A stretch of 32,772 nucleotides of DNA from an uncultured Bacillota bacterium (GTDB lineage: Bacteria > Bacillota > Clostridia > Christensenellales > UBA1242). A program made the position numbers and the translations under genes. Shown here in pieces: positions 1 to 16,162 of this stretch. Position 1 is the first letter of the stretch; the number at the start of each line of letters is the position of its first letter. Below the pieces are notes generated by a model, which was not told the DNA's origin, did not search any database, and saw only the letters and a program-made list of their open reading frames with translations. Location: positions 1 to 32,772 of the forward strand of contig CAMUGK010000002.1 of the NCBI GenBank assembly GCA_947088415.1, written 5' to 3'.

Positions 1-47
1 TAATAAATTATATAAAACACTGCTTATCTTAAATAAGGAGGTGTGAT

Positions 48-230
48 ATGGAACAGCAAGAAAAAATATGTATTTCTATCCAAGAGATGGCTCAGTTGCT
101 TGGAATTGGAATAACTTCTGCCTACAAACTTGCAAACGATAAACTATTTTATCCAGCAAAGCGTGTTTGTGGAAGAATCGTAATACACTACGATTTGCTT
201 GAAAAGTGGATAAAAGAACAAAACAACTAG
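48..230 (+). CDS. Small helix-turn-helix DNA-binding protein of the AlpA/excisionase type
   Basis: 60-aa ORF with GGAGG 8 nt upstream. ISIQEMAQLLGIGITSAYKLAND reads as an HTH, and the C-terminal part (RIVIHYDLLEKWI) is typical of excisionase/AlpA-like regulators. It sits directly upstream of the primase gene. Confidence 0.6.
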   Translation: MEQQEKICISIQEMAQLLGIGITSAYKLANDKLFYPAKRVCGRIVIHYDLLEKWIKEQNN

Positions 231-238
231 GAGCGATT

Positions 239-2242
239 ATGGAAAATATTTTTACAGAGGTTAAAAATCGTTTGTCCATAAAGGATGTTATTGAGCATTA
301 CTCCACTGCAACATTTAATAAAGATAATAAATGCCATTGTCCATTCCCAGATCATCAAGATGTAAAAATCCCGTCGTTGTCAATACGGAAAGCAAATAAT
401 ACATTTAGATGTTTTGGGTGTGACAAAAGTGGCAGTGTTGTTGATTTTGTTATGATGTATAAAGGAGTAGATAAAATCCAAGCAGTTAGAATGCTTAATG
501 AAGATTTTAACCTAGGCTTAAACTTTAAAGATCAGAGCAAAAAGAAATTTGATATCAAAAAGTATTTGTTGACATGCGAAAAAGACATTGGACAAACAGA
601 TTACTTTATTAAACGAGGATTGTTACCTACAACAATTAAGAAACATAGGCTTGGCTATGACAAAGTTAAAAATGCGGTAACAATACCTTACAACGGTAAA
701 ATGAATTATGGTCAAATAAGATATGTGAATGAGAAAAGATTTTGGAAACCACCTACAAGTGATGTTGGCACAGAGCCAATATATAATGAAAATGCAATAA
801 ACGATAAAGATAATGAGCCAATCTTTATTGTTGAAAGTCCAATATGTGCAATGAGTATTGAACAATATAACTCAAAAGCAATTGCGATATGTGGCGGTGG
901 CGGAGTTTCTAAGTTGGATAAGGCACTTAAAGGCAAGAAAACTTGCAACCTGGGATTTATACTGGCACTAGACAATGATGAGCCAGGTGCGAGATATACT
1001 GACGAATTTGTGGCGTATTTTAAGAGCAAGAGAATTAAATATGTGGTGTGCAATATTTCTGGCAAAGAGAAAGATCCTAATGATTTACTAAAAAAGTCCT
1101 CTGAGGCTTTGGTTAAAAATATAGTCAAAGCAAGAAAGGAATATTATAGTAAATGTACGTCATATAGAGATTTAAAATCGGCGCAAGAAATTACGAGCAT
1201 GACACTGAAACCCGTGAATTGGTTGATTCAAGACCTATTTCCTACTGGATTGAGTATTATTTGTGGGGCATCTAAGATTGGGAAAAGTTGGTTTGTACAG
1301 AACTTGTGTTTATCTATAAGTAATGGGGATAAATTTTTAGATAAACCTGCATCAAGAAATGCTTGTTGGTATATGGCGTTAGAAGACGATGAAAGTCTGT
1401 CACAAGCAAGATTAAAAATGATGTTGAAAGGTAAAACTGCACCAAGCAACTTTTTTATATCCTATGAAATATATCCAATGGACAAGATTGATAAAGACAG
1501 GCCTACACTTATGGAATATATTGCTGAAAACATAAAAAGGAATCCAGAAATTAAATGTGTGGTTGTAGATACATTTCAAAAGGTGCGAAGTGCTTCGGCA
1601 TATGGCGAGAGTATGTATGCTCATGATTATAGAGATATATCTACCCTTAAAAAACTTGCTGATGAGTTGCAAATTGCAATAATTCTCATTCATCACACCA
1701 ATAAAATGAAAGACAGAGATACAGACGGCGATCCATTTGCTAAAATTAGTGGAACTAATGGACTGATGGCAAGTGCGGACTGTATTTTTTTGTTGGATAG
1801 AAAACGTGGAGAACAAGAAGTTCAACTTGCTTTTACTGGAAGAAAAATAAGGTGTGACACTTGGACAATATGTCAGAGCGAGACGGATATGACCTGGTCA
1901 AAAATAGGAACGGTCGAAGAAGAAGCCTACAAAAAGAAGTTAAAAGAATACAATCATAGCCCTTATGTAATTACAATTAAGCATTTGCTTGCTGTAAACG
2001 ATGGAGATTGGAGTGGGTCCTCTACTAAGTTTATAGAAGAACTTGGTAAACTTTATCCTAATGGAATGCCTATAAATCCAGTTCCTGCTGTTGTTGGGAG
2101 AGATATAAACGAAATGTCTGAAAGTTTAAAGCAGTTTGATCAAATAATTCATTTAAATACAAACCCACATGGTGGGACAAATGGTAGACAGCATAGGTTC
2201 TACTACATTAATAAAAAGAAAGAACAAACCTCTATATCTTAG
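239..2242 (+). CDS. Primase (CHC2 zinc finger plus Toprim) fused to a RepA/DnaB-like P-loop ATPase
   Basis: The track ORF is 206..2242. I prefer the ATG at 239, with GGAG at 230-233. Motifs seen: zinc finger CHCPFPDH...CFGCDKSG (nt 332-421), Toprim-like IFIVESPICA and LALDNDEPG, Walker A GASKIGKS (nt 1265-1288), and Walker B VVVDTF. Confidence 0.85.
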   Translation: MENIFTEVKNRLSIKDVIEHYSTATFNKDNKCHCPFPDHQDVKIPSLSIRKANNTFRCFGCDKSGSVVDFVMMYKGVDKIQAVRMLNEDFNLGLNFKDQSKKKFDIKKYLLTCEKDIGQTDYFIKRGLLPTTIKKHRLGYDKVKNAVTIPYNGKMNYGQIRYVNEKRFWKPPTSDVGTEPIYNENAINDKDNEPIFIVESPICAMSIEQYNSKAIAICGGGGVSKLDKALKGKKTCNLGFILALDNDEPGARYTDEFVAYFKSKRIKYVVCNISGKEKDPNDLLKKSSEALVKNIVKARKEYYSKCTSYRDLKSAQEITSMTLKPVNWLIQDLFPTGLSIICGASKIGKSWFVQNLCLSISNGDKFLDKPASRNACWYMALEDDESLSQARLKMMLKGKTAPSNFFISYEIYPMDKIDKDRPTLMEYIAENIKRNPEIKCVVVDTFQKVRSASAYGESMYAHDYRDISTLKKLADELQIAIILIHHTNKMKDRDTDGDPFAKISGTNGLMASADCIFLLDRKRGEQEVQLAFTGRKIRCDTWTICQSETDMTWSKIGTVEEEAYKKKLKEYNHSPYVITIKHLLAVNDGDWSGSSTKFIEELGKLYPNGMPINPVPAVVGRDINEMSESLKQFDQIIHLNTNPHGGTNGRQHRFYYINKKKEQTSIS

Positions 2243-2257
2243 AATACTGTTATTCTC

Positions 2258-2298
2258 GTTATTGCTGTTATGGGGAGAATAAAAATAACAGCAATAAC
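2258..2298. repeat. Perfect 14-bp inverted repeat downstream of the primase gene
   Basis: GTTATTGCTGTTAT (2258-2271) and ATAACAGCAATAAC (2285-2298) flank a 13-nt loop. No T-run follows, so this is not a classical terminator. Confidence 0.6.
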
Positions 2299-2351
2299 AC
2301 CTATAACGGTAAAAAGATATATAAGAAAAAATTAAAAAACTAGGAGTAAAT

Positions 2352-2687
2352 ATGTTTGAACACTATGACTTTTATAAAGCCAGTCAATTTCTGGCAAAAA
2401 CAAATCAATGTAAATGGATAATACAAGGAGTTACTGGACTTTTGCAATATGACGAGATAGATATTCTTGACACAATTGAAAAGTTAAAGCCTTGTAATTA
2501 TTATATGATTGAAAAATTATATTGTAAGATAATGCAAGATATGGATTATGAAGTTCCGTTTACTTTGGAAGAACTATTACTTTGCATTAAGAATTATCCA
2601 AAAAGAAGATTCAAAGGGTTTAACAAAAAGGCATGTTGTTATGTAAAAAATTTATATGAAAGATTACTGTACCTCTACCCAATGTAG
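2352..2687 (+). CDS. Hypothetical protein (111 aa)
   Basis: ORF with AGGAG 8 nt upstream of the ATG. I recognise no motif. Confidence 0.5.
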   Translation: MFEHYDFYKASQFLAKTNQCKWIIQGVTGLLQYDEIDILDTIEKLKPCNYYMIEKLYCKIMQDMDYEVPFTLEELLLCIKNYPKRRFKGFNKKACCYVKNLYERLLYLYPM

Positions 2688-2758
2688 ACCCCAGGGGGAT
2701 CTAAATCTCTACGAATTCAGTCTTTAGAGCGGGTCGGCAGTCGTATACAAATTTTCGC

Positions 2759-2890
2759 ATAATCAAAAATCAAAATGATAATCAAAATATTGAAAATATT
2801 ACTAGTAGAACATGTTACTAGTATTTTTTATTACTAAAAGTTTTATTTGAAAAGTAAAAAACACGAAAATAATTCAAAAAATAATCAAAA
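2759..2890. repeat. Iteron-like direct repeats ATAATCAAAA
   Basis: Exact 10-mers at 2759-2768, 2778-2787 and 2881-2890, plus a variant ATAATTCAAAA near 2869. They lie in a non-coding stretch of about 480 bp. A TACTAGTA...TACTAGTA hairpin with a T-run at about 2810-2835 lies between them. Confidence 0.4.
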
Positions 2891-3080
2891 TAAAGCAATT
2901 TAAGGAATGTTTTATAATTTGCGACAGTTTGATGGATGAAATCCTTTTCGTGCGACTGTGAGCGAATTTAAGACAAATTAAAGCAAAATTATGAGAAGAT
3001 AAGAAAACAAGAATACAAAATTACAAGAAAACAAAGTTTCAAGGATACAAAGATACAAGAGAAATCTTTTATTTTATTTG

Positions 3081-3155
3081 GCTGTTCGCTGGACTTTAAT
3101 ATTCTTTTGCGGTATGTATTGTACTAGCAAAAGTACAAGTCCAGCTGTGAACAGC
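3081..3155. promoter_or_regulatory. Long nested inverted repeat immediately upstream of the excisionase-integrase pair
   Basis: GCTGTTCGCTGGACT (3081-3095) pairs with AGTCCAGC-tgt-GAACAGC (3138-3155). An inner hairpin TTGTACT/AGTACAA is present. The structure ends 5 nt before the RBS GGAGG (3161-3165). Confidence 0.4.
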
Positions 3156-3170
3156 ACATTGGAGGTATTA

Positions 3171-3389
3171 ATGCAAAGAATAAGGACTATCACTGAGACA
3201 TTACAAATGTTGAAGAAAGAAGATCCAGAAACTTGTTTAAGTGAGTTTCTCATAAGGAAACTTGCGAATAATTACAAAATCCGTTCCATAAAAACTGGCA
3301 ACAAAGTGCTGATTGATTACGATTCGCTATTGGCATTCTTGCAGAGTAAAAGTTACGAGTTGCCAATGGAACAAATTATCATAGGTTAA
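3171..3389 (+). CDS. Excisionase-like HTH protein
   Basis: The track ORF 3078..3389 starts at a TTG inside the inverted repeat. The ATG at 3171 has GGAGG 5 nt upstream. The product is colinear with, and similar to, the element-2 ORF at 13324..13518 (…KIRSIKTGNKVLIDYDSLLAFL versus …QITVLNIGSKFLIQLESLCDFL). Confidence 0.6.
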   Translation: MQRIRTITETLQMLKKEDPETCLSEFLIRKLANNYKIRSIKTGNKVLIDYDSLLAFLQSKSYELPMEQIIIG

Positions 3390-3400
3390 GGAGAAAAATT

Positions 3401-4792
3401 ATGCCATGTATTAAGAAAAATGTGCTAGACACGGGTGCGATTTCATATCGCATCCAAGTTAAAGCTAAGAATGAGCGAACTGGCAAGTTTGAGGCCAAAG
3501 TTATGACTTGCAGAAAGCCAGCAGAGTTAACAGAAAGGCAATATGAAAGAGAACTGCAAAGAATCGCCTTTGAGTTCGAGGATAAGTTTCGCAAGTCTAT
3601 GAATGGTTTGCTTGCGGTGGATAATGACATATTGTTTATAGATTATGCCAACAAATGGTTAGAAAAAGTTAAAAACACTAAGTCTCTCAACTATTATGTT
3701 AAAGGAAAAGACAGTATTAAAAAGTTCTATGCTTACTTTGGAAACATTAAACTTAATCAAATCACGCCAGTTATGGTGCAAGGTTTCTTGGATGAAATGA
3801 GTTATAAAAAGTGTGAAAAGAAAAGTGCCGTGATGATTAAAGACATAACACAATACCTTAAATCGCACTGCATTAAATTGGTTGATGCCACAAACAAAAC
3901 TGGTATATCAAGGTCAATATTCTTTTCGGCCACAAGCGGACATGGAATAATGGTTGAAAATGCTGAGCGAATATGTAAAGAGTTGGGATTAAAATATGAC
4001 GAATACTTTAAGACAGAAATAATCTCACATCCTTATGCAAAGGAAACAATACTAAAACTTAAACGAACACTTGCAACAATATTAGCAGAGGCAAAAAGAC
4101 AAAGGCTTGTTGAACACAACTTCGCAAGCAGAGATTATATTGCACCGATACAAGGCTACAAGAAAGAAATACAAATTCTAAATGATAAAGAAGCGAAAAT
4201 ACTGGCACAATACTTGGATACTGAACCAAACCCTCGCTGGAAGATCTCTCTGTTAACAATCTTGTTTATGGGGTTAAGGCGTGGCGAACTTGCTGGCCTT
4301 GAATGGCAAGATATTGACTATGAGAATAAGACAATGACAATTCAAAGATCGGTGCAAGACATCGTCGGCTTTGGACTTATAACCAAAGATCCAAAGACCG
4401 AGAACTCAAAACGCACAATATCAATGCCAGATAAACTAATAACTTACTTGAAAGAATATCAAGTATGGTGGGATAATCAAAAGCACTATCTTGGCGACCG
4501 CTGGAAAGATACTGACCGATTATTCTGCACAGAAGATGGAAAAACAATCTCGCCAGGATTATTTAGAGTATGGCTACAAAAGACATTAGTAAAAGCGGGC
4601 TTGCCAAAAGTGTCCCTTCACTCACTTCGCCACACTAATATAACCTTGCAATTAATCGCAGGTGTAGACATGAAAACCGTCTCTGCTCGTGCAGGCCACA
4701 GTAAAGCATCTACCACAAGCGACTTCTATAGCCACTTTATAAAGAATTCAGATATTCACGCGAGTGAAATATTGAATAAAATATTTGAATAA
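3401..4792 (+). CDS. int: Tyrosine recombinase / integrase
   Basis: Catalytic-domain motifs seen: GLRRGELAGLEWQDID, HSLRHTNIT, AGHSKASTTSDFYSH (R...HxxR...H...Y). AAGGAG RBS. Homologous along its length to the integrase at 13955..15376. Confidence 0.9.
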   Translation: MPCIKKNVLDTGAISYRIQVKAKNERTGKFEAKVMTCRKPAELTERQYERELQRIAFEFEDKFRKSMNGLLAVDNDILFIDYANKWLEKVKNTKSLNYYVKGKDSIKKFYAYFGNIKLNQITPVMVQGFLDEMSYKKCEKKSAVMIKDITQYLKSHCIKLVDATNKTGISRSIFFSATSGHGIMVENAERICKELGLKYDEYFKTEIISHPYAKETILKLKRTLATILAEAKRQRLVEHNFASRDYIAPIQGYKKEIQILNDKEAKILAQYLDTEPNPRWKISLLTILFMGLRRGELAGLEWQDIDYENKTMTIQRSVQDIVGFGLITKDPKTENSKRTISMPDKLITYLKEYQVWWDNQKHYLGDRWKDTDRLFCTEDGKTISPGLFRVWLQKTLVKAGLPKVSLHSLRHTNITLQLIAGVDMKTVSARAGHSKASTTSDFYSHFIKNSDIHASEILNKIFE

Positions 4793-4860
4793 TTAAATGC
4801 TTAGGAGAAAAATCTCTTAGGGATTTTTTGTTGTAAAAATTATACGATTTTTTTAATTTG

Positions 4861-4869
4861 TGCTATAAT
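4861..4869 (+). promoter_or_regulatory. Extended -10 promoter element (TGcTATAAT) for the NACHT gene
   Basis: TGCTATAAT lies 18 nt upstream of the ATG at 4887. It follows an AAAAATC/GATTTTT hairpin located after the integrase stop codon. Confidence 0.45.
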
Positions 4870-4886
4870 TCAATTAGGAGAAGCAT

Positions 4887-7800
4887 ATGTTAAGCACATT
4901 AGATAAAATTCATATTATATTAAAGACGATAGCTACCACTGCAACGATTTCTAATATTAGTGGTTATGAAGATATGGCTAAGTCCTTAGAAAACTTTACA
5001 AAAAGTCTGTTTAAAGTTTTAGATAATAAGGATTTCGGTCAACCAACCATATTAAAATGCAATAACGGAAATGTTGAATTTGTTGCGAATGACGGTACGG
5101 AATATCAAGTTACTACAAACAATAATTTTAAAGCGAAGTGTGAAAAAACAATAATCACATTTTTAGAGAATAAACAAGCTGGTCATACATTGCAAATTGT
5201 TTACTATGTATTATTGTCAGGTAATGACAAAACAAAAAAGAAACAGTTACTCTCACAATATCCAAAGGATGTCTCAATATACGATGTAGAAGATATTTGC
5301 AGGAAAATTGCACAATGTGACGATGAAACTGTGAATAAAATTTTTAATATCTGTATGGAATTTTATCCCATAGATTTTTCTAATTATGCTCTTGACACAT
5401 TCACCAATTCTATTAAGTTATGCGATGATTATATTGACAGAAGCTTTAATGTTTTAAATAACAATTCATTTTTAAAGATCGAAAGCATAGACGATTTATT
5501 AAAACAATATCGAAATATCGTTATAATGGCTGATGCTTCAGCTGGTAAAACAGAGCTATTGATAAAAATCAATAACAGTTATTACGACAAGCAAAAATGC
5601 GTATACTATTATCAATTGAAGAATTACAATGGTAAAGAAATTATAAAATATCTTCCTAAACCCTTTTTGTTACATCCAACTCCTTTATTATTGTTGGATG
5701 GATTTGATGAAATCGAAAGTGTTCATGTGGATAATTTTATAAAGGAACTTAATACATTTACACAAATATACCCAGATTGTAAAGTCGTTATTACATCTAG
5801 AAAGAATTTTTGCACTCGAAATATGTTTGATAATTTTTCATATTGCGAATTAAACGATTTAACTGACACGGAAATAGATGCTTATTTTAAAGATAAATTT
5901 GATGAAAAACATACTGAAAAAATAAATTTGTGCAAAACTCTCAATATATATAATTTATTATATAATCCTTTCTACTTAACAAGAATAGTTAAGGTTCTTA
6001 GTCTAAAAGACAATTTATCAAATAGATCTGACATTATGAAAGCGACTTTCGAATTAGATTATAATAAATATAAATATAATAAAGAGATTTCTAGCGAGAC
6101 TTTGCTATGTCAATTAACACAATTTGCAATGTTTTTATTTCAAAAAGACAAGTCTAATTGCGATATTTCAGATTATAAGCAATTCGATAATGATAAAATG
6201 AGAGCTTTTTCTTGGCTGTTATATCAAGATGATAAAATCAGTTTTGTACACAATAATTTTAAAGAATTCCTAATAGCTCTAAGATTAAGCGAATTTCCAG
6301 TTTCTAAAATAATCAAAATAATAACACTCAAATTAGATAAGCCATATATTAAAACAAAGTATACCAATATATTAAGTTTTATGCTATCTTCTTATAAAAA
6401 TGATAAACTCTTTGATTATGTATTGAAATATGGCCAATATATTATACTAGATCTCGAAGAATCGTCTTTAACAGAGAAACAGAAAATTCAAATAATTGAA
6501 AAGATATATAAGGAATATGAGTTAAAAAAATCTTGGCCAAATGCTTATCTTTATAATGAGAGAAAGTTAGCAAAAATTTGTGATACTAAAAAAATTATTG
6601 AAATTTTAATATCAAAATTGAAACCCAAAAATCATAGAACTACAATAGTGTTTTCTATTGAGTTATTAAAAGAAGTCCCATCTTTATTTGGTTTCACGAA
6701 TAAGTTAAAAGAATTAGTTATACAATGGCTTAATGATGATTGCCTGGATGAAGTAGTGTTAAGTTCTTTAATTTATTCCCTAAATAAGCTAAATGCTTCT
6801 ATTGAAGAAGTTTCTAGTATATATTTAAAATACAGAAACCATAAGTATTCTAGAATTCGTGCATCTGTGAATTATTTACTAAAGGAATATAAATTAGCAA
6901 CAAAATTTATTCCTGAAGTTATAGAAGGATTCAGTAAAGGCCAGTTAAAAGTTCTTGATGTTAACCATAAAGAAGAAGATGTTATTGATGCTGGAGAAAG
7001 CTACTATTTACAACAGGCAATAAGTGAAATCAGAGATGAAAACGCTTTAGAACAACTCTTGGACTTTATAATTGAAAATGAGAGGAAGTATGAAACAAGA
7101 TCTTTTACGGAATATGTTTTTCAGGCTCTTGAAAATAAAAGAAAAATCGGACTAAAACTACAAGAAAAGCTGTATACTTTATTAAGTTTAACTTGTCTGC
7201 ATTATACTGACAACTTGTTAAATTTAACACTAAACTTAATTTATAAATTTAAGCTTAATAATGAATTTATGAGTAAAATATTTTCAGACACAGAAATAAA
7301 AGAATATCAAAAAAATCTACTAATTGCGCGTTTATATACAGACGAATCAATTTTTAAATGTCTAGATTATTTTAAATCACAAACAAAACAACAAATAGAA
7401 AATTTTATATATTATCTAAAGGAATATAACAAAAATTATGCAGATGTAATTAGTTTGTTGAAAGCTGAAGGAATCTCTTGTTCTTTACCTAAAAATGATT
7501 ATGAATTGCAAAGGCAAAAAGCAATCCAAACACATTTTAATAATTTATTTTTTAAAGAAAAAGTTATAGCAATTGTAAGGAAAATACTGAAAGATCTTAA
7601 CGGCGATGAGATTTCTAGAAAAAAAGTCAGAGAGCATTATCTCTACAGCGATTATAAATTGCCTTTCTATATTTATTCGTTATTTGATATTGATAGTAAT
7701 AATTTTAATGAAAAGAAAATTCTTAAACAAGTTACAGACAATTGGCAAATTTCACAGATTTATGATATGTTACATCACAACAAGCAATTAGAATTAAAGT

Positions 7801-8777
7801 CTAAGCAAATTGATTTTATAAATAAATGGGTTGTTAAGCAATTAGAAGTAATAGATTTCAAAAATGCCATAACTTATAATGGCACGTCTTGGTCTACATC
7901 TTATAATGCGATGTATACAGAATATTTTATAAGAAAATGTGATTTGCTTGTTGATAATAATATTTATGAAGATATGTTATGCTTTACTTGGGGAGAAAAT
8001 TCTGATTCTGATATTTCCAATTTGGAGTTTATTGAACAAAAACTCGGCAGTGAAAACTTTAAATCAAAACTTTCAGAATTTAGTAAAAAGGACTTCTTAG
8101 ATGGCTATGTTTTAAGTAACAGATTGAGATATTGCATGAAAAAGGATTATGATATTTTGTTTGATTGTGTAATCAAAAAAATATCGAACTTAAATAAGGA
8201 TGAAACTGATTATCATTCTAGTATATACTTCGAGTATTTAAATAAATTTGGCAGACTAGCTTCTGCTTACGATTTTTATGACAATTTGCCAATTAATTTA
8301 AAGTTAGAATTAATACATATGAGTTTAAATCAAAATTTGGATAATAAATTCATTTTGGATCATACAGAGAAAGATATATCCTTAAATGATGAAAATTCTA
8401 TTAAAATAGCAAAAGCATTATTACCACATAGAAGTTCAGTTGCCTTAAAATATTATTATAAAACAATACATAAAGACGGCTTTGAAATATCATATCCATA
8501 TCCGACACTTAAAGCATATCAAGACAAAAAGTATTTTAAAACCTTATTTAAAATTTTAGCGTTGACATATAAATATAAGGATGAAGATAATCATACCAGA
8601 AATGACCTAATGTTTTGTTTTGAAAAAATTTGCATTAATTCGAATCTTAAGACAGTAAAGTATATAATAAAAAAATTAAACAGATTTACTAAAATCTCTA
8701 AGTATGAAAATGTAAATTATTTACATTATTATTTAGATGGTATAAAGCTGCAGATTATAACACAAAAAGACGCTTAA
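4887..8777 (+). CDS. NACHT-type STAND NTPase (1296 aa) with an uncharacterised N-terminal domain and a long alpha-helical C-terminal region
   Basis: Walker A ADASAGKT (GKT at nt 5544-5552). Walker B LLLLDGFDEI, the NACHT-typical hhhhDGxDE form. VVITSRKN follows it. About 200 aa lie upstream of the P-loop and about 800 aa of Leu/Ile/Lys-rich helical sequence lie downstream. The gene has its own promoter and terminator. Confidence 0.85.
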   Translation: MLSTLDKIHIILKTIATTATISNISGYEDMAKSLENFTKSLFKVLDNKDFGQPTILKCNNGNVEFVANDGTEYQVTTNNNFKAKCEKTIITFLENKQAGHTLQIVYYVLLSGNDKTKKKQLLSQYPKDVSIYDVEDICRKIAQCDDETVNKIFNICMEFYPIDFSNYALDTFTNSIKLCDDYIDRSFNVLNNNSFLKIESIDDLLKQYRNIVIMADASAGKTELLIKINNSYYDKQKCVYYYQLKNYNGKEIIKYLPKPFLLHPTPLLLLDGFDEIESVHVDNFIKELNTFTQIYPDCKVVITSRKNFCTRNMFDNFSYCELNDLTDTEIDAYFKDKFDEKHTEKINLCKTLNIYNLLYNPFYLTRIVKVLSLKDNLSNRSDIMKATFELDYNKYKYNKEISSETLLCQLTQFAMFLFQKDKSNCDISDYKQFDNDKMRAFSWLLYQDDKISFVHNNFKEFLIALRLSEFPVSKIIKIITLKLDKPYIKTKYTNILSFMLSSYKNDKLFDYVLKYGQYIILDLEESSLTEKQKIQIIEKIYKEYELKKSWPNAYLYNERKLAKICDTKKIIEILISKLKPKNHRTTIVFSIELLKEVPSLFGFTNKLKELVIQWLNDDCLDEVVLSSLIYSLNKLNASIEEVSSIYLKYRNHKYSRIRASVNYLLKEYKLATKFIPEVIEGFSKGQLKVLDVNHKEEDVIDAGESYYLQQAISEIRDENALEQLLDFIIENERKYETRSFTEYVFQALENKRKIGLKLQEKLYTLLSLTCLHYTDNLLNLTLNLIYKFKLNNEFMSKIFSDTEIKEYQKNLLIARLYTDESIFKCLDYFKSQTKQQIENFIYYLKEYNKNYADVISLLKAEGISCSLPKNDYELQRQKAIQTHFNNLFFKEKVIAIVRKILKDLNGDEISRKKVREHYLYSDYKLPFYIYSLFDIDSNNFNEKKILKQVTDNWQISQIYDMLHHNKQLELKSKQIDFINKWVVKQLEVIDFKNAITYNGTSWSTSYNAMYTEYFIRKCDLLVDNNIYEDMLCFTWGENSDSDISNLEFIEQKLGSENFKSKLSEFSKKDFLDGYVLSNRLRYCMKKDYDILFDCVIKKISNLNKDETDYHSSIYFEYLNKFGRLASAYDFYDNLPINLKLELIHMSLNQNLDNKFILDHTEKDISLNDENSIKIAKALLPHRSSVALKYYYKTIHKDGFEISYPYPTLKAYQDKKYFKTLFKILALTYKYKDEDNHTRNDLMFCFEKICINSNLKTVKYIIKKLNRFTKISKYENVNYLHYYLDGIKLQIITQKDA

Positions 8778-8790
8778 CCAGCGTCTTTTT
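8764..8790 (+). terminator. Rho-independent terminator of the NACHT gene
   Basis: AAAAGACGCT (8765-8774) pairs with AGCGTCTTTT (8780-8789). The stop codon lies in the loop and a T-run follows. Confidence 0.7.
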
Positions 8791-8798
8791 GTGTAAAT

Positions 8799-8844
8799 TG
8801 GTGAGAGTAAGAAGATTTGAACTTCCGACCTGTCGCTTAGGAGG
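8799..8844 (-). pseudogene. Orphan 3' half of a tRNA-Arg(CCU): anticodon loop to CCA. Acts as an att junction.
   Basis: The reverse complement reads CCTCCTAAG-CGAC-AGGTC-GGAAG-TTCAAAT-CTTCT-TACTCTC-A-CCA. No matching 5' half is adjacent: the upstream sequence GGTGGCTAATTGCC cannot form the anticodon or D stems. Confidence 0.75.
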
Positions 8845-9090
8845 GGCAATTAGCCACCGAAGTCCTATTGAATAACTTTTGAAATACACATATCTATTTG
8901 TATTATCAATTAACTTTTCATAGTATAATACAAAATTTGTGCTTTTGTCAAAAACTTCAAATAACTTTTGTTCCATGAGTAGCATTTTTAGTATGGTATG
9001 AAAGTTATAAATGACTTACAAACCGTCTTTACTCTTTAACTTAAATAAAAATTAAAACATCAGGGTTGATGTTGAGTTAAGGAGATTAAA

Positions 9091-9963
9091 ATGGAAAAGA
9101 ATAATTTAATAAAAGAAAACGACCTTGTTAAAGTAAGAGTTGTTAGAGATGAAGTAATATTACACAATATTAGCATGTGTAATCGTAAACCTGTTTCAAG
9201 AAGAATTGGAAATGGTAAAAGAGTTAATATTCAAACAGGCGAAATCACAGAAGAAAAGAAAACTGCAAAACGAGGCGAAAGCCTTTATAGTTTGCTTGAA
9301 AGCAATATTAAACTACAAGATTTAATTAAAGAAAATACTGTAAACTTAAAACATATACTTTTGCTAACATTCACTTACAGAGAAAAAACATTAGATATAA
9401 AGAAAATAAACGAAGATTTTAAGTCTTTTATGAAACGATTAAGGCGAAGAATAACTGAATTTGGAACAATAGAATATATAAACACACTTGAATTAGATAA
9501 TGGTGGCTATCATATACACGCAATAATTTTCTTTAATGAGTCTAAAAAGATTGTTTATATACCTGACACAATAATAGCAGAGATATGGGGTCATGGGTTT
9601 ATAAAGTTTGGGAAAAAACCTAAAACTAAAAAAGATGTATACTATTATGTGACACCTCACTTATCAAATGAAGTGACAAATAAAAATAGTCATATGCACT
9701 ATAAAGCACTAATGCAAATGGAACTACCAACTGGACAAAACCTTTATAGATATTCAAAAGGTCTTAAAAAGCCTATAATTCACACGGATACTTATGAAAA
9801 TGTGAAGAAATATCTTAAAGAAAATAGTTATGTGTTTGAAAGAGAAAATGTATATCTTAATCCTATGCAGTCTCACAGGGGCAACAACCTATACTATTGC
9901 AAAGAGTATTATAAAAAAGAAGAAACAAAGTCTTACGGATTAGGTAAACGAACACCTATCTAA
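9091..9963 (+). CDS. rep: HUH-superfamily rolling-circle Rep / relaxase-like protein
   Basis: Motif I-like ILLLTFTY. HUH motif GGYHIHAIIFF (H-I-H at nt 9511-9519). Tyr-rich motif DVYYYVTPHL. AAGGAG RBS. Confidence 0.7.
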   Translation: MEKNNLIKENDLVKVRVVRDEVILHNISMCNRKPVSRRIGNGKRVNIQTGEITEEKKTAKRGESLYSLLESNIKLQDLIKENTVNLKHILLLTFTYREKTLDIKKINEDFKSFMKRLRRRITEFGTIEYINTLELDNGGYHIHAIIFFNESKKIVYIPDTIIAEIWGHGFIKFGKKPKTKKDVYYYVTPHLSNEVTNKNSHMHYKALMQMELPTGQNLYRYSKGLKKPIIHTDTYENVKKYLKENSYVFERENVYLNPMQSHRGNNLYYCKEYYKKEETKSYGLGKRTPI

Positions 9964-9986
9964 ACTGCCTTTTAAGAAGCATTGAT

Positions 9987-10013
9987 ATTTAATATAATAA
10001 ATTTATATTAAAT
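9987..10013. repeat. AT-rich 11-bp hairpin just downstream of rep, plus a nearby direct repeat CCTATTTGCA x2
   Basis: ATTTAATATAA (9987-9997) pairs with TTATATTAAAT (10003-10013). CCTATTTGCA occurs at 10036-10045 and 10070-10079. Confidence 0.4.
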
Positions 10014-10149
10014 AATTTATATCAGCCATTTTAGACCTATTTGCAGTGGCGAGAAAGTTTGTGACAGTCCCTATTTGCAAAATAATAGCCCCAAAGTTAT
10101 AATTTTTATATAAACTAAGAGCAAAGTGTGATATAATGCAAAGGGAGGC

Positions 10150-10974
10150 ATGAAAATGAAACAAATAAAAACTTCCATCTATTGGTTTATTTTAATTTGT
10201 AGTGTTTTAATGGCGGTTTTAATAACAATAGCAACTACTATGGGTTCAAATAATTTAATTATAGGACTTATTTCAGGTGTTTTTTCTAGTGCTATGGTTG
10301 TTTTGATTGACCTTTTTATAAAATATTTTATAAGTAAAAAAGAAACATTTCAAACTATTACAAATTCAGTTTATAATTTATTTTCACAAGTAATCTTATT
10401 TATTTCAAGTATAGAAGATTTTGGGTATAATGATTTTGAATTATGGTATGAAAATATCCAAAACAAACGAAAAGAATTACTAAAAAGTTCAAGGGACTTA
10501 ATAGATAACATTTGCGATGTTTACTGCTTTTTCAAAAAAGGATATAAACTTGTTGGAGAACTTTATCAACTTTTTTATACATTAGACTTCTATGAGTTAT
10601 TAGATTTCTCAAATAGCGAAATTACTTTGGAAATTCAAAATACTATAATAGAAATTGAAGACATGGACTTACTAAAATATAGAGATAAAATAAGGCTTAA
10701 AAACAAATTTGAAAAATTAAAAGATAATTATAAAAATCAATTAAAAGAAGGAATTAAAAAATTAAACGAATACCTTCATCCAGTAGAAAATATTTATAAA
10801 GATATGTGTAAAAAATATTTCAATGAAAGTATTTATAACAATGCTAAAAAGTTTTTGAATAATTTAGATTTTGAATTAAATGATAAAAAATTAAATTATG
10901 CCTTTAGAGAGATTTTTATAAAGCAAGATATTCAATTAAAATATTTGAGTAAAGATAAAAAAGACTTGCAGTAA
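10150..10974 (+). CDS. Membrane protein with two N-terminal TM helices and a helical cytoplasmic domain of about 200 aa
   Basis: TM segments IYWFILICSVLMAVLITIATTM and LIIGLISGVFSSAMVVLIDLFI. The ATG at 10156 has better spacing to GGAGG (10144-10148) than the ATG at 10150. A terminator hairpin is shared with the convergent XRE gene. Confidence 0.6.
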   Translation: MKMKQIKTSIYWFILICSVLMAVLITIATTMGSNNLIIGLISGVFSSAMVVLIDLFIKYFISKKETFQTITNSVYNLFSQVILFISSIEDFGYNDFELWYENIQNKRKELLKSSRDLIDNICDVYCFFKKGYKLVGELYQLFYTLDFYELLDFSNSEITLEIQNTIIEIEDMDLLKYRDKIRLKNKFEKLKDNYKNQLKEGIKKLNEYLHPVENIYKDMCKKYFNESIYNNAKKFLNNLDFELNDKKLNYAFREIFIKQDIQLKYLSKDKKDLQ

Positions 10975-11001
10975 TTTGCAGGTCTTTTGTTTTATTTGTT
11001 T

Positions 11002-11301
11002 TTAAGCAATGTAATAATAGCACTTTTTTTTATCAGGGCTGGCGGTTTTAAGTAAGTCTATAATCTCTTTGTCTTTGCGATATGCACTTATCTCATAATA
11101 AAAAAATTCAGAAACAGATGAATCACAAGCGTCTATAATTTCAAGCAGTGCTGAAACTGAAGGCTCAAAACTATCATTTTTAGACTCTAGACGGGAGATA
11201 TAGGCGGGATTTTTACCTATTTTCAAACTTAAATCACGAGCAGATAAACCTTTGTCTGACCTTAATCTACTTATACGAAAAATAACCTCTTTTTTATCCA
11301 T
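11002..11301 (-). CDS. XRE-family HTH transcriptional regulator
   Basis: LRSDKGLSARDLSLKIGKNPAYISRLESKN is a classic Cro/CI-type HTH. The gene is divergent from the operon at 11466-12944. Confidence 0.85.
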   Translation of the reverse strand: MDKKEVIFRISRLRSDKGLSARDLSLKIGKNPAYISRLESKNDSFEPSVSALLEIIDACDSSVSEFFYYEISAYRKDKEIIDLLKTASPDKKKCYYYIA

Positions 11302-11396
11302 AAATCCACCTCACAAATATACTAAAATTATAAATGATAAGCGGCTTTATGGCACTTTGCAACACTTGTAAAAATTACATAGTATGAAACTATTTT

Positions 11397-11445
11397 GCAC
11401 TTATAAGTGCATTTGTTTGCTTTTACATTCATTTTGTGCTATTAT
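11397..11445 (+). promoter_or_regulatory. Perfect 14-bp palindrome (candidate operator) abutting the operon promoter
   Basis: GCACTTATAAGTGC at 11397-11410. -35 TTGCTT at 11417-11422, a 17-nt spacer, and an extended -10 TGcTATTAT ending at 11445. Confidence 0.45.
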
Positions 11446-11465
11446 ACTTACATGAGAGGTGCAAA

Positions 11466-12302
11466 ATGAAAATTATTTTAAGTAAAAAGGGGTTAGACAG
11501 TAGCAACAGTGTTAAGCCTATAACTATTGATAATAAGCAAATGATATTTTTGCCTATTCCAAGTAATCAAGATTATGATAATGCAAGATATAGCGAAGTG
11601 TTTGAAAATAAAATATCATTGCTTTTCTATTGTATGGAAATGGGTATTGATTTTGGTTATATAGACAACAAAAAATTGCCAATGAATGGAACTACAAACT
11701 GCCATTTAGACCCACAACTTATAAATTATTTTGGTTATGATAATTTCAAAGGTAGTTTTGGGCAAGTGAAAGCCGCCCAGAAGCATTTAGAAAATAAACA
11801 AGTGCAAGCAGGCGATTTGTTTTTGTTTTATGGTTGGTATACCGATAATAAAACACATAAAGAAAAGCATACTCTTTTTGGCTATTTGCAGGTTGGAGAG
11901 ATTATAAAAGTTAATGAGTTGACTGCAAGCCAAAAGCAAAAAATAGTTGATAAATATCCTTGGCTACACCATCAACCTCATTGGTATAGCCAAGAAACAA
12001 ATAATACAATTTACATAGCAAGGGAAACCTGTTCATTTAATAAAAATATCAAAGGTTTTGGAATGTTTAAATATGATAAAGAATTAGACTTGACAGCAAA
12101 AGATATTGGCACAAAAACCTGCTGGGAAATTTCAGCATTGAAAAATTGTAAAGTATCTTTCAAAGACCATAATGGAAACGACAGTTTTAATGATTTGGGA
12201 CAATTTAGAGTTGCTGACCGCTGTCAAGAGATAGTTATTGAAGAGTGTCCGCAGGCTGAAAAGTGGGCTATAAACTTAATTAAAAAATATAAAAGGAGAT
12301 AA
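11466..12302 (+). CDS. Conserved-looking protein of unknown function (279 aa), possibly Nmad3-like
   Basis: The track ORF starts at a GTG (11436) inside the -10 box. The ATG at 11466 has GAGAGGTG upstream. The N-terminus MKIILSKKGLDSS..., CHLDPQL, FGQVKAAQKHL and GDLFLFYGWY resemble my recollection of Nmad3 (nucleotide-modification-associated domain 3) proteins. This is from memory and unverified. Confidence 0.6.
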   Translation: MKIILSKKGLDSSNSVKPITIDNKQMIFLPIPSNQDYDNARYSEVFENKISLLFYCMEMGIDFGYIDNKKLPMNGTTNCHLDPQLINYFGYDNFKGSFGQVKAAQKHLENKQVQAGDLFLFYGWYTDNKTHKEKHTLFGYLQVGEIIKVNELTASQKQKIVDKYPWLHHQPHWYSQETNNTIYIARETCSFNKNIKGFGMFKYDKELDLTAKDIGTKTCWEISALKNCKVSFKDHNGNDSFNDLGQFRVADRCQEIVIEECPQAEKWAINLIKKYKRR

Positions 12303-12304
12303 AA

Positions 12305-12625
12305 ATGAAAAACATAAGTTTAACAGTAGAATTCAAAAATCCAGAAAAAGAATTGCAAGAACAATTACAAAGAAATGGTGCAAGAAATATAAGCATAAGA
12401 AGAAATTTTGACGGCTGTCTTGAAGTGTCTTACAAAATTGTTTGTGCTGACCCACAAAAAGAAATTGAAAAAATGCTGTCATCATCTGGCGGACAAAGTG
12501 TTAGAAGTTCGTCAAGTTATAATGGTGCAAGATTTGATATGAAAATTGACGATCGTCTTGATGAAAGAGAGTTCAAAAAGCAAATTATAGACGCTCTCCG
12601 CAGAGCAGGTTTTAGAGCAAACTAA
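12305..12625 (+). CDS. Hypothetical protein (106 aa), closely coupled to the upstream gene
   Basis: The ATG lies 2 nt after the upstream TAA, with AGGAG inside the upstream 3' end. No motif recognised. Confidence 0.6.
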   Translation: MKNISLTVEFKNPEKELQEQLQRNGARNISIRRNFDGCLEVSYKIVCADPQKEIEKMLSSSGGQSVRSSSSYNGARFDMKIDDRLDEREFKKQIIDALRRAGFRAN

Positions 12626-12639
12626 AAACAACTAAAAAT

Positions 12640-12674
12640 AACCGTCTCCGTTATGATTAGTAGGAGGCGGTTTT
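12640..12674 (+). terminator. Terminator-like hairpin whose 3' arm contains the RBS of the next ORF
   Basis: AACCGTCTCC (12640-12649) pairs with GGAGGCGGTT (12663-12672), with one G-T pair. TTTT follows, then the ATG at 12675. Confidence 0.5.
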
Positions 12675-12944
12675 ATGTTTTTAGAAATTTACGATAAGTT
12701 TGACAAAAAGTTAGGAGATGTTTTTGTTAGTGAAGATGGCCATATGTCTTTATGTTTTGACAATAAAAATAATTTGCTAGGCAGAATTGTTGGAGATGAG
12801 AAAGTTTTATTTGCCTTTGATGAAGATGATAGGTATTTAGGAAGATATGATAGTCTTTATACTTACGATAGGCATGACAACTTGTTAAAAAGGGGTAATT
12901 TAATATATAACATGTTTTATCTCACCATTAAACACATTAGATAG
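12675..12944 (+). CDS. Small repeat-containing protein (89 aa), possibly 4-fold beta-flower-like
   Basis: Internal repeats: DNKNNLLGRIVGDE, DEDDRYLGRYDS and DRHDNLLKRGN. The family name is recalled from memory only. Confidence 0.5.
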   Translation: MFLEIYDKFDKKLGDVFVSEDGHMSLCFDNKNNLLGRIVGDEKVLFAFDEDDRYLGRYDSLYTYDRHDNLLKRGNLIYNMFYLTIKHIR

Positions 12945-13323
12945 CCCTGCAAGTGCCTGCAAATGGCGTGAGAACAGGCAAAAGAGTTTTTATCGGTAAA
13001 TCGACCATGAAAATATAAAAAGCCATACAAAAGGCTAAATAATAGGAAAAGTCCGCAAACAGAAAGCGGTCTTTTTTTATGCTATTTTTTATCTTAAAAC
13101 CATGACATGGTAAAACATCGCTTCAATAACCCCTGTCGTGTGAAGTCATATGTAAACAACGAGTTGGGATAGAGCAAAAAATCACTATAGTCCTGTGTGC
13201 ACATTAAAAGCACACGAAAATTTACGGGATTTTTCGGGAAATACGGCAAAATGGTTGCCTTCTCTGCCTGCATCGGCTTTAATGAGTTCTAACTCGAAAA
13301 ACTCCCATTACAAAAGGAGGTAA

Positions 13324-13518
13324 ATGGTTATGTATAGGACGATAGAGCAAGCCTATGCTTACTTAAAAGAACTTGACCCTAACACAGCACTAACAAAATA
13401 TTATTTGAGAGTTTTGTGTCAAACAAACCAAATCACAGTGCTTAATATAGGCTCAAAGTTTTTAATCCAACTTGAAAGTTTATGCGACTTTCTAAAAATC
13501 AAATTATGTGAAAACTAA
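13324..13518 (+). CDS. Excisionase-like HTH protein
   Basis: Homologous to the ORF at 3171..3389 and located upstream of the integrase. The ATG at 13330 has better spacing to GGAGG (13316-13320) than the ATG at 13324. Confidence 0.6.
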   Translation: MVMYRTIEQAYAYLKELDPNTALTKYYLRVLCQTNQITVLNIGSKFLIQLESLCDFLKIKLCEN

Positions 13519-13536
13519 AAATATAAGGAGTAAAAA

Positions 13537-13953
13537 ATGGAAATCAAAAATTTAGGAAAGTATGTAAGTGTGTTAGACAATGGCTTAATGCAAATGATTG
13601 GAGAAAAACCTATTGAATATACACTACATGCTCAATTTAGAAGCACAGTCACAGGTGCGATAACAAGATTTGAAAAAGTTGTAAAAAATACAAAAGAATT
13701 TGAAGGAAAAGAACTTAAAGAGTTTTTATATTCAAACCTTCAAGAATTTATTAAAGAACGAGAGTTTAGGTTTATATATAACTTTATACCTTATGAGTCA
13801 GCGGAATATGAATTCCCTAACAAAAAAGGCAAGGTAAAGACATGGAAAGCAAAAGTGTTTTATAGTGAAAGCGAAAAAGAAAGTCATAAAATGTTTTTGA
13901 AATTAGCACAAGCAAGAGAAGAACAAAAGTTAAGAAAAAAAGGAGTAATGTAA
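13537..13953 (+). CDS. Hypothetical protein (138 aa)
   Basis: AAGGAG RBS. The stop codon lies 1 nt before the integrase ATG. No motif recognised. Confidence 0.6.
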   Translation: MEIKNLGKYVSVLDNGLMQMIGEKPIEYTLHAQFRSTVTGAITRFEKVVKNTKEFEGKELKEFLYSNLQEFIKEREFRFIYNFIPYESAEYEFPNKKGKVKTWKAKVFYSESEKESHKMFLKLAQAREEQKLRKKGVM

Positions 13954-13954
13954 A

Positions 13955-15376
13955 ATGGCAACATATGAGAAAAGAACAGCAAAGAAGGACGGTCATATCA
14001 CATATGGCATACAAATCAAAGTTAAGGACTATTTGGGTAGAGATAAATTTGTAAACACTACTTGGAAAAACCCTAACAACCTTACAGGCGAAAGAGCAAA
14101 AAAGGCTGCGATTGCTTTTGGTGAAACATGGGAAGCAGAATATAAAAACGGTCATACCCATAAGTTAAGCAATGCAAGTTTTAATCAAGTAGCAAATGAG
14201 TGGCTACGAAATGTTAAACACAGAGTATCATTAAACTATATTTTACGATCGGAAGATTGTATTAAAAGAATGACCGAATACTTTGGAGATGTAAGATTTG
14301 TAGATTTAAGGGCTCATGAAATCCAACAATTTATCACATACCTAAACGAATATACTTACAAAACTATAACCGCAAAAGTAAAAGAATATAAACTTGATGA
14401 GTTTAAGGAAAGTATAAAAGCAAATGGCGGTGCGAGAAAGGCAGAGAGAGATGGAATAATATCACGCCCTGTGTTTTACTATGCTACACATGGAGAACCT
14501 ATTGCATATAGCAGTGCCGAGAAAATTTGTAATTTATTAAAAATAAGTATAAAAGAATTTTTTGAAAAGATTGTAGTTGAAAAAGGTTATGCAAAAGAGA
14601 CAATACTAAAATATCAACACACATTAAGTGCAATTTTCAATTATGCAATCAAAAATGAGTTAGTGACTTCAAATTATGCTTCAAGTGTTTACACAAAAGA
14701 TAGCATAGGCGGAAGAAAAACCGAAGAAGCCAAAATATTAACTAACCAAGAATATGACAAATTATTAGAAACTTTGAAACTTGCGGACAACAAGTTAGAC
14801 AACAAAGGACAACCACTTAATCTTATTTGGGAAACTATACCTTTGTATGTTATGACCCAATTAGGACTTAGAACTGCCGAAGTGTGCGGTCTTAAATGGG
14901 AAGATATAGATTTAGATGAAAGAGTTTTGAGTGTATGCAGAGATAGAGTTTACACTCCAAAATATGGTGTTTATGATAGAGATACAAAAACTGCTAAATC
15001 AACAAGAAAATTATTTATAAGTGATTTGTTAGCCGAAAAATTACAATTATTCAAAGATAAATATGAAGAACTTAAAAAAGCCGATAAAAAGTTTGATAAA
15101 AGAGGCTATATCTTTTGTAATGTTGATGGCACACCAAAGTTCCCACAATATCTTAACTATTTACTACAAAAATATCTTTTAGAAGCAAATGTCACAGTTG
15201 TATCAAATCATAAGATACGACACACATGGATAACAAGACTTATCACAAATGGTGCACCTGTAAACGGAGTTGCACAAATGGCAGGTCATGCCGACAAAAA
15301 TACAACATTAAAGATATACACTCACTTTTCAAAAGATGTTAAGGCATCACAAGAATTGTTGACAAAATATTTGTAA
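13955..15376 (+). CDS. int: Tyrosine recombinase / integrase
   Basis: GLRTAEVCGLKWEDID, HKIRHTWIT, AGHADKNTTLKIYTH. Same architecture as the integrase at 3401..4792, including the shared segment ISRxxF..AT.G......AEKIC. Confidence 0.9.
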   Translation: MATYEKRTAKKDGHITYGIQIKVKDYLGRDKFVNTTWKNPNNLTGERAKKAAIAFGETWEAEYKNGHTHKLSNASFNQVANEWLRNVKHRVSLNYILRSEDCIKRMTEYFGDVRFVDLRAHEIQQFITYLNEYTYKTITAKVKEYKLDEFKESIKANGGARKAERDGIISRPVFYYATHGEPIAYSSAEKICNLLKISIKEFFEKIVVEKGYAKETILKYQHTLSAIFNYAIKNELVTSNYASSVYTKDSIGGRKTEEAKILTNQEYDKLLETLKLADNKLDNKGQPLNLIWETIPLYVMTQLGLRTAEVCGLKWEDIDLDERVLSVCRDRVYTPKYGVYDRDTKTAKSTRKLFISDLLAEKLQLFKDKYEELKKADKKFDKRGYIFCNVDGTPKFPQYLNYLLQKYLLEANVTVVSNHKIRHTWITRLITNGAPVNGVAQMAGHADKNTTLKIYTHFSKDVKASQELLTKYL

Positions 15377-15410
15377 TGTTATTGAGACACACAAAAACTT
15401 AATAAAATAA

Positions 15411-15443
15411 AATGCTAGGTGCGAATACTCGTATCCTAGCATT
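15411..15443. terminator. Bidirectional terminator hairpin between the integrase and the HEPN gene
   Basis: AATGCTAGG (15411-15419) pairs with CCTAGCATT (15435-15443). Confidence 0.6.
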
Positions 15444-15465
15444 GATAATGTTTCGACATGAATTA

Positions 15466-16116
15466 TTATGGTCTTTTTATTGATTGAAGAATAGAAACTA
15501 ATTTTTCAGTATCTAAACTTTTTCTAGTAAGATAGCCAAGTTGATAATCTTCAAACAATATATCTATTGAATTGCCAAAAGTATTATGACAAGAACTAAT
15601 TTTGTCATGCCCTAGCAATTCAAACATATTGTTCATTAAGTCGAAGATATTTTCAAGTAAAGCAATTATTTTTGCAGAGTCTAATTTTAAGAGAAATATG
15701 TCTGAGTTTGCATTTCGCAGTTTTTTATCAAAATGTGCTAAATAATTATCTCTAAATGTTCTTAATTTTGACAACTCATCTTTATTGTCGCTTATCAGAG
15801 TGTCAATATTTTTAGCAAGTTCTTTTAGTTTTAGGTCGTTTTGTTTATCTAGAATTTTATTTGAATTTATAAAGTTTGAAACACTTTGAATAGATAAGGA
15901 ATCAGGGTCGCCATCAAATAATTTAGCAGCAGTTAACATAGATTGTTCTTTTAATGAATGAGAAATATGTCCTAAGTCATTTTTTAGAATGCCATAAGAC
16001 GACTTATCTATTTCATACCAATCGTTTATTCTTTCATTCAAGTAATAGTTGTTTTGGACTTCACTAATTTTAGAATGTAAAAATTTAAGTGTTTTAGTCA
16101 AAATATCAGAATTCAT
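15466..16116 (-). CDS. HEPN-domain protein, AbiU2-like abortive-infection candidate
   Basis: The internal ATG at 16116 has AGGTGA upstream. The track start at 16149 lacks an RBS. An Rx4-6H motif, RDNYLAH, lies at nt 15733-15753 within LRTFRDNYLAHFD. The protein is all-alpha and Leu/Asn/Lys-rich. Confidence 0.6.
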   Translation of the reverse strand: MNSDILTKTLKFLHSKISEVQNNYYLNERINDWYEIDKSSYGILKNDLGHISHSLKEQSMLTAAKLFDGDPDSLSIQSVSNFINSNKILDKQNDLKLKELAKNIDTLISDNKDELSKLRTFRDNYLAHFDKKLRNANSDIFLLKLDSAKIIALLENIFDLMNNMFELLGHDKISSCHNTFGNSIDILFEDYQLGYLTRKSLDTEKLVSILQSIKRP

Positions 16117-16162
16117 TATCACCTCACAAAATAAAAAGTATCTAGCCAAATAGATACTTAAA

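Follow-up and report, generated by a model that had tools for sequence, protein, structure and literature searches.

What does a large NACHT protein do between the integrase gene and the attachment (att) site of an integrative element? The question is raised by a 32,772-nt stretch of contig CAMUGK010000002.1 (the window, meaning the whole stretch analysed here, to which all coordinates refer), in which one long gene occupies positions 4887–8777. A preliminary description had read this gene as a NACHT/STAND NTPase with an unassigned and possibly novel N-terminal domain, carried as stand-alone cargo. We consider it probable that the gene, lodged as exchangeable cargo between integrase and att, specifies an NLR-like anti-phage sensor in a single protein; its nuclease head would be activated on a phage trigger and lead to abortive infection. 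The parts of the protein are located as follows.

4887–8777, plus strand: complete open reading frame (ORF) for the SMEK–NACHT–helical solenoid protein, 1296 amino acids, ATG start
4887–5381, plus strand: probable N-terminal SMEK domain with a predicted restriction-endonuclease-like fold, residues 1–165 (Pfam SMEK_N, AlphaFold2 model)
5484–6326, plus strand: NACHT module with nucleotide-binding domain, helical domain and winged helix, residues about 200–480 (motifs, family profile, Foldseek)
5529–5552, plus strand: Walker A motif ADASAGKT with K221 (sequence motif)
5685–5714, plus strand: Walker B motif, DGFDE within LLLLDGFDEI (sequence motif)
6243–6269, plus strand: winged-helix motif FVHNNFKEF with H455 (sequence motif, NLRC4 alignment)
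6327–8774, plus strand: all-helical solenoid, the presumed sensor, residues 481–1296 (AlphaFold2 secondary structure, Foldseek)

Five full-length homologues of 1288–1301 amino acids were found, 40–84% identical to the window protein, and the ORF at 4887–8777 is therefore no chance ORF; a pseudogene was ruled out by the same full-length conservation. Positions 1–8843 of the window were also present, at 99.99% DNA identity, in a 162-kb metagenome contig (L001).

A three-part protein with conserved motifs

The middle of the protein is supported as a NACHT-type STAND NTPase module. The motifs quoted in the preliminary description were all present in the translation, with ADASAGKT at residues 215–222, LLLLDGFDEI at residues 267–276 and VVITSR at residues 300–305. 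According to Kibby et al., two features mark NACHT proteins: a D[GAS]hDE signature that follows the aspartate of Walker B, and a winged-helix histidine (H443 in NLRC4). The signature is satisfied by D271-G-F-D-E275, and the GKT of the P-loop lies at residues 220–222. The residues G220, K221, D271, G272, D274, E275 and R305 did not vary across 14 to 18 sequences of the family. A search of the PDB with the sequence of the whole protein returned no match; a profile built from 18 family sequences matched NLRC4 at E = 8e-4, from the P-loop through the winged helix, and in this match FVHNNFKEF (H455) was aligned with FFHKSFQEY of NLRC4. At the position of H455 the structural model showed a beta hairpin and helices. 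Two distant relatives carried a glutamate where the winged-helix histidine is expected.

The body of the protein (residues 186–1296) was modelled with AlphaFold2 (AF2), with a predicted local distance difference test score (pLDDT) of 85.1, and the model was submitted to Foldseek. The best overall structural match was Avs4 bound to the phage portal (PDB 8dgf, E = 6.7e-8), and the NACHT domain of NLRP3 (1.9e-7), NLRC4 (3.4e-7) and NOD2 (4.4e-7) were also found. The assignment to the NACHT/STAND NTPases is thus borne out by the D[GAS]hDE signature, by the NLRC4 profile match and by the Foldseek matches to NLRP3, NLRC4 and NOD2. A segment 30% identical to residues 181–470 (E = 1e-19) was also present at positions 727–1647 of MT838439.1, an unannotated 5.2-kb record named "Bacteriophage sp." from human faeces.

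From about residue 490 to the C-terminus, the AF2 model forms a solenoid of about 815 residues with approximately 45 helices. Its sole non-helical feature is a short beta hairpin near residues 996–1003. The sensor-like helical C-terminus of about 800 residues, proposed earlier from the letters, was therefore recovered in a model with a pLDDT of 85.1. A Pfam scan of this region matched no family; the Foldseek matches of the solenoid also included karyopherins. The most divergent segment lies at residues 701–900 (window positions 6987–7586), with a mean pairwise identity of 37% compared to 47–55% in the other named domains among six close homologues, and it may be the surface that contacts the target.

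The N-terminal domain is supported, from profile comparisons, as a probable divergent copy of SMEK, an effector already catalogued in Argonaute and Lamassu systems. In short-Argonaute systems SMEK is a nuclease effector fused to APAZ, and one SMEK-APAZ complex was reported as DNA-cleaving (PMC10810196); SMEK is also given as the effector of short Lamassu (PMC12663957). When residues 1–195 were searched alone, Pfam SMEK_N (PF21941) scored 29.8 bits against a gathering score of 27, the match spanning residues 8–141 and profile positions 2–139 of 140. A full-length Pfam scan of the protein did not find SMEK_N at E ≤ 0.01. The heads of the family members, again taken alone, matched SMEK_N in five of six cases, with a best E-value of 4.7e-9. 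The nearest representative outside the window clade (P0035), 31% identical over its full length, reached 54 bits on the NCBIfam SMEK_N model. When a profile was iterated over 165 proteins of the family, it converged on 21 with a SMEK head, among them P0007, whose head matched SMEK_N at E = 1e-42 and the PADLOC model of the Argonaute-associated restriction endonuclease (REase) at 3e-39. The head of the window clade alone did not match this PADLOC model, and the N-terminal profile, searched against the PDB, gave only a chance-level match to Arp2/3.

Both N-terminal strings quoted in the preliminary description were present (residues 28–45 and 63–95), and its suggestion of a SMEK-type domain was supported by three results: the Pfam score above threshold, the five of six members and the iterated profile. 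Its view of the domain as unassigned and a possible source of novelty did not survive, and since the SMEK guess was correct, most of the proposed novelty is gone. The head probably belongs to the same Pfam family as the effectors of SMEK-APAZ (short Argonaute) and LmuA (short Lamassu). In the window protein, however, SMEK is fused to a NACHT sensor and not to an APAZ or SMC-like partner, and the window clade has a glutamate where an aspartate is usual.

The AF2 model of the head (pLDDT 81.5, predicted template-modelling score 0.76) shows two helices, three strands, a helix, a strand and further elements, with an alpha-beta-beta-beta-alpha-beta core. Helix 2 carries E35, strand 2 carries E64, strand 3 holds both Q74 and T76, and K84 is in the helix that follows. 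Such a layout fits restriction-endonuclease-like (PD-(D/E)xK) folds. Together, E35, E64, Q74, T76 and K84 are the putative active-site residues; E35, Q74, T76 and K84 were invariant in all 21 SMEK-NACHT proteins. The top Foldseek neighbours of the head in two libraries, none of them significant, were EcoT38I, MspJI, Rpb5, Mrr-type endonucleases, Shedu and Can2. These neighbours suggest a lean towards the restriction-endonuclease fold and are not a proof of it.

Exchange of heads on a common body

A phmmer search with residues 1–1200 against 1.84 billion representative proteins found 629 related clusters at E ≤ 1e-3, 424 at E ≤ 1e-10 and 71 at E ≤ 1e-30. Most of these clusters had a size of 1300–1470 amino acids and aligned from about residue 200 to about residue 1190. 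The NACHT module and the solenoid therefore constitute a single coherent family with variable heads. The heads found on this same body were SMEK, DUF4062, a calcineurin-like metallophosphatase (Metallophos) and Mrr_cat_2. Effector swapping was described for defence NACHT proteins by Kibby et al. The SMEK-NACHT architecture itself was also present in other database proteins (P0007, P0035). The solenoid was common to several hundred protein clusters, and no curated defence model matched it.

The family is patchy. A single family locus was found among 185,579 species, each represented by one genome, and it belonged to an uncultured Firmicutes metagenome-assembled genome. Homologues 23% identical to the window protein were present on megaplasmids of the Bacillus cereus group, with the label "hypothetical protein". 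One homologue, in an integrative and conjugative element (ICE), adjoins a type III restriction–modification system. Another adjoins a fragment of a methylase (DPPY motif) and, after it, a 491-amino-acid ORF bearing HNH-like motifs, both recognised by eye. Across the homologue loci compared no neighbour gene was kept, which argues for a one-gene system.

It could be asked whether the protein belongs to immunity at all. It might be a regulatory or housekeeping STAND NTPase with a helical scaffold, its defence context being coincidental. Many STAND clades are non-defence, as only 198 of 589 were classed as defence-associated in the Lee et al. 2026 preprint, and no curated defence model matched the window protein. 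However, domain scans of the protein found no DNA-binding or regulatory output domain, and the nuclease-like head is exchanged in relatives for other enzymatic effectors. The family is also rare and patchy (the one locus in the 185,579 species genomes), and its members recur on mobile elements beside restriction–modification systems. We regard a non-immune role as highly improbable.

The anti-phage sensor can be compared with three groups of known systems. With bNACHT25, described by Kibby et al. and bearing an Mrr-like REase effector, the window protein has in common a single polypeptide, an N-terminal effector of REase type (predicted in the window protein), a NACHT module and a sensor region at the C-terminus. 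Both the bNACHT proteins and the window protein show the D[GAS]hDE signature and the winged-helix histidine, and by Foldseek as well as by family profile the window protein matches animal NACHT proteins. The two differ in that SMEK stands where bNACHT25 has Mrr, and the solenoid of approximately 815 residues lies outside the curated models, the bNACHT models of PADLOC being unmatched.

With the Avs proteins the window protein shares the order of effector, STAND NTPase and large helical-repeat sensor. According to the Lee et al. 2026 preprint, proteins of the Avs type recognise conserved proteins of phages and form oligomers. The NTPase of the window protein differs in being of the NACHT type by motif, and the global template-modelling score against Avs4 was low (0.27). 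None of the AVAST profiles of PADLOC was matched.

The third group, Erebus and Hypnos, also has a NACHT and a similar size, the profiles of EruA (NF058535) and HyoA (NF058534) having 1318 and 1430 positions, respectively. By name, EruA and HyoA correspond to Erebus and Hypnos (Avs10, bNACHT64), grouped as Avs10 in the Lee et al. preprint; a literature search for EruA and HyoA as gene names found nothing. The homology was weak and limited to the NTPase module: the window protein scored 19.3 bits on EruA, and relatives reached at most 57 bits. In EruA the NTPase begins at about profile position 18, which leaves no room for a SMEK-sized head, and the C-terminal regions could not be aligned with that of the window protein. 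Membership in Erebus or Hypnos was rejected, as the alignment covered the NTPase only and the scores were approximately 50-fold below the cut-offs of 1000 and 1200 bits. SMEK was not mentioned in the Lee et al. 2026 preprint or in those of its supplements that were searched.

Several results weigh against the reading of the protein as an anti-phage sensor with a nuclease head. PADLOC (v2) gave no match with the whole protein and nothing, even at E ≤ 1, with the isolated N-terminal and NACHT segments, so that a comparison put forward in the preliminary description ended negative for every part of the protein. Pfam NACHT (PF05729) stayed under its gathering score of 26.7, with 19.2 bits for the full-length protein and 22.4 bits for the module taken alone, and this match covered only the second half of the profile. 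The relatives P0008, P0009 and P0017 passed Pfam NACHT with 27.6 to 31.3 bits. For the head, NCBIfam SMEK_N (NF033859) scored 12.8 bits on the window protein with a cut-off of 30, and hhalign of the N-terminal profile with the P0007 head, a single canonical SMEK sequence, was weak (E = 0.013). Foldseek searches of the head model against the PDB and BFVD gave no match at E ≤ 1e-3. Position 64 was a glutamate in six of six window-clade members and an aspartate in the 15 other SMEK-NACHT sequences, and the third motif was QxT instead of (D/E)xK; catalytic competence is therefore uncertain. One homologue (P0002) was located among housekeeping genes, with no defence neighbours. Finally, we infer the anti-phage role from architecture and context, and the trigger, the nuclease activity and the phage phenotype are presumed by analogy.

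The same residues bear on a second explanation, according to which the protein would be an NLR-like sensor with a SMEK-like head that acts, in this clade, as an adaptor, an oligomerisation domain or another hydrolase and does not degrade DNA. The replacement of Asp by Glu64 throughout the clade, the absence of the ExK lysine from strand 3 and the absence of a significant structural match to any solved nuclease are in its favour. Direct biochemistry of a SMEK nuclease also comes from a single Argonaute-associated system (cited in PMC10810196). The change from Asp to Glu nevertheless retains a carboxylate, and the set of 21 proteins in which E35, Q74, T76 and K84 are invariant includes canonical SMEK. 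Restriction endonucleases, Mrr and Rpb5 recur among the best, if weak, structural neighbours, and sister proteins have Mrr or a metallophosphatase in the same place. A non-nuclease head appears unlikely to us.

A variable slot between integrase and att

The gene is carried by an integrative element inserted in tandem with another one at a tRNA gene. The features that define the element and its insertion site are the following.

206–2242, plus strand: primase-helicase with zinc ribbon, Toprim and DnaB-like AAA_25 (domain matches)
3078–3389, plus strand: short ORF, weakly matching an excisionase-type DNA-binding model (NCBIfam TIGR01764, 18.6 bits, under the cut-off of 28.8)
3401–4792, plus strand: tyrosine integrase of the element (Pfam Phage_integrase, 1.1e-18, and SAM-like domains)
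4799–4807, plus strand: 9-mer GCTTAGGAG, the same sequence as the att core at 8835–8843 (sequence match)
8799–8843, minus strand: 3' half of a tRNA (45 nt), right-end att site of the element (sequence, homology boundary)
16163–16237, minus strand: tRNA-Arg(CCT), intact, chromosomal target site of the tandemly integrated elements (ARAGORN)

The tRNA fragment at 8799–8843 comprises the T-arm, the acceptor stem, the CCA end and the anticodon-loop core CTCCTAAG. It begins 21 bases past the stop codon of the NACHT gene and was found in a single copy in the window. The intact tRNA-Arg(CCT) and the fragment, at 8836–8846, have CTTAGGAGGGG in common. Homology with contig L001 ended exactly at position 8843, where L001 continues with a different integrase-bearing element. 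This stop confirms the placement of the gene as stand-alone cargo between the integrase (3401–4792) and att (8799–8843), as first described. On the right of att in L001 (L001:13958–23891), the place of the window's second element is taken by another one, which carries an integrase and a LexA-like repressor.

The left end was less clear. In the 5.1 kb upstream, available from contig L001, there was no second att copy, no tRNA and no convincing direct repeat. The sequence GCTTAGGAG occurred exactly twice in the window, on either side of the NACHT cassette, a count that one of 100 shuffles also reached. One copy (8835–8843) is situated at the crossover point of att. The copy at 4799–4807 lies right after the integrase stop codon, within a terminator-like hairpin, and could be a former attP core or a chance occurrence. 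A megablast of window positions 1–9000 against phage genomes gave no match.

Seven metagenomic elements had integrases 71–77% identical to that of the window, and a segment like 8754–8844 recurred in them 0.74–4.9 kb past the integrase. The genes enclosed differed. One slot contained a C5 methylase, a HATPase protein and a 419-amino-acid ORF, another a pair of PDC-M12A/B (AbiL-like) genes, and another an HNH-like ORF; the others were unrecognised. Examples are L012:9572–11435, L009:9704–14328, L013:9452–10804 and L020:8279–9169 (from L007–L014 and L020). Between integrase and att, this element family has a hotspot of variable cargo, in which the NACHT gene would be one exchangeable item. Recognised defence genes were present in the slot of two of the seven sister elements. 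ORFs of 296, 298 + 150 and 241 amino acids in these slots matched no family and are candidate new defence genes. A related observation concerns L007:7551–9392, which corresponds to window positions 2946–4792 with an integrase 95% identical in protein and 87% in DNA; only the Xis-Int module is in common. The primase-helicase region could not be aligned between L007 and the window, and the elements are therefore mosaic.

This location raises the possibility that the gene serves the mobile element itself, either by excluding rival elements or helper or rival phages at the tRNA-Arg site, or as an addiction module. The gene indeed lies within an integrative element, beside att, tandem variable elements occupy the same tRNA site in the window and in L001, and another homologue resides in an ICE. 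Such a role would differ from the anti-phage reading by its range of targets, the mechanism being alike. However, no antitoxin-like partner gene is present, the gaps around the gene being 94 bp upstream and 21 bp downstream (up to att), and the homologue loci have no conserved neighbour. A role in the service of the element is in our opinion improbable.

Proposed mechanism, flanking signals and surroundings

We propose the following model for the anti-phage sensor. In the uninfected cell the protein would be an auto-inhibited, nucleotide-bound monomer in which the winged-helix His455 touches the nucleotide. The solenoid would bind a phage protein or a phage-induced state of the host. The NACHT module would then exchange its nucleotide, and an NTP-dependent oligomerisation would follow. 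The clustered SMEK domains could form an active, metal-dependent nuclease via E35, E64, Q74 and K84, and the resulting indiscriminate degradation of DNA would halt the phage while sacrificing the cell (abortive infection). A more speculative idea, which we hold to be doubtful, is that the solenoid represents a sensor class beyond the characterised Avs and bNACHT families, recognising a novel phage component or infection state, and that a SMEK with Glu64 and QxT has a different substrate or chemistry.

Defence by a single NLR-like protein that bears a nuclease head is an established class (bNACHT25, Avs), which the window gene would extend; current concepts are unchanged by it. If confirmed, the gene would provide a compact single-gene immune receptor of low-GC anaerobes (uncultured Firmicutes), and its body family of several hundred clusters carries no curated annotation. 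If the reading is true, this would be the first test case in which a SMEK effector is joined to a NACHT sensor, and the real activity of SMEK could be learned from it. The slot is a small, well-delimited hotspot, and its uncharacterised cargos (296, 298 + 150, 241 and 270 amino acids) may be further defence candidates.

The following signals flank the gene.

4861–4869, plus strand: extended −10-like element TGCTATAAT (read from the sequence)
4876–4881, plus strand: ribosome-binding site AGGAGA, 5 nt ahead of the ATG (read from the sequence)
8764–8790, plus strand: terminator-like inverted repeat AAAAAGACGC-N7-GCGTCTTTTT, arms 8764–8773 and 8781–8790 (read from the sequence)

The gene had been credited with its own extended −10 promoter and terminator. 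Both sequences are there, but neither was listed by a consensus scan. The scan for promoters omitted TGCTATAAT at 4861–4869 because a −35 hexamer at the proper spacing is missing, and the inverted repeat at 8764–8790, within which the stop codon of the gene falls, was likewise absent from the list. The frequency of promoter-like sites in this AT-rich stretch was no higher than in shuffles. The element at 4861–4869 is consequently described as a putative promoter and the repeat as a putative terminator. The GC content of the NACHT gene was 25.9%, compared to 37.3% for the integrase and 34.4% for the primase-helicase (34–37% for the backbone genes). The low-GC trough extended beyond the NACHT gene to about position 11000, into the neighbouring element.

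This second element, in tandem with the first, covers positions 8844–16237 and ends at tRNA-Arg(CCT). The genes recognised in it are listed below.

9091–9963: G2P-like rolling-circle Rep (domain match)
11436–12302: Nmad3 (domain match)
13955–15376: tyrosine integrase of the second element (domain match)
15466–16149, minus strand: AbiU2 HEPN gene, in the slot between the integrase and the tRNA

The position of the AbiU2 gene in the second element mirrors that of the NACHT gene in the first. To the left of the window start, contig L001 (L001:1–5114) contained a C5 DNA methylase, an NgoBV-type restriction enzyme and a 1125-amino-acid ORF. To the right of the tRNA, positions 20995–21798 encode a DUF4417 protein (2.4e-49) and positions 20251–20943 an Amidase_3 N-acetylmuramoyl-L-alanine amidase on the opposite strand.

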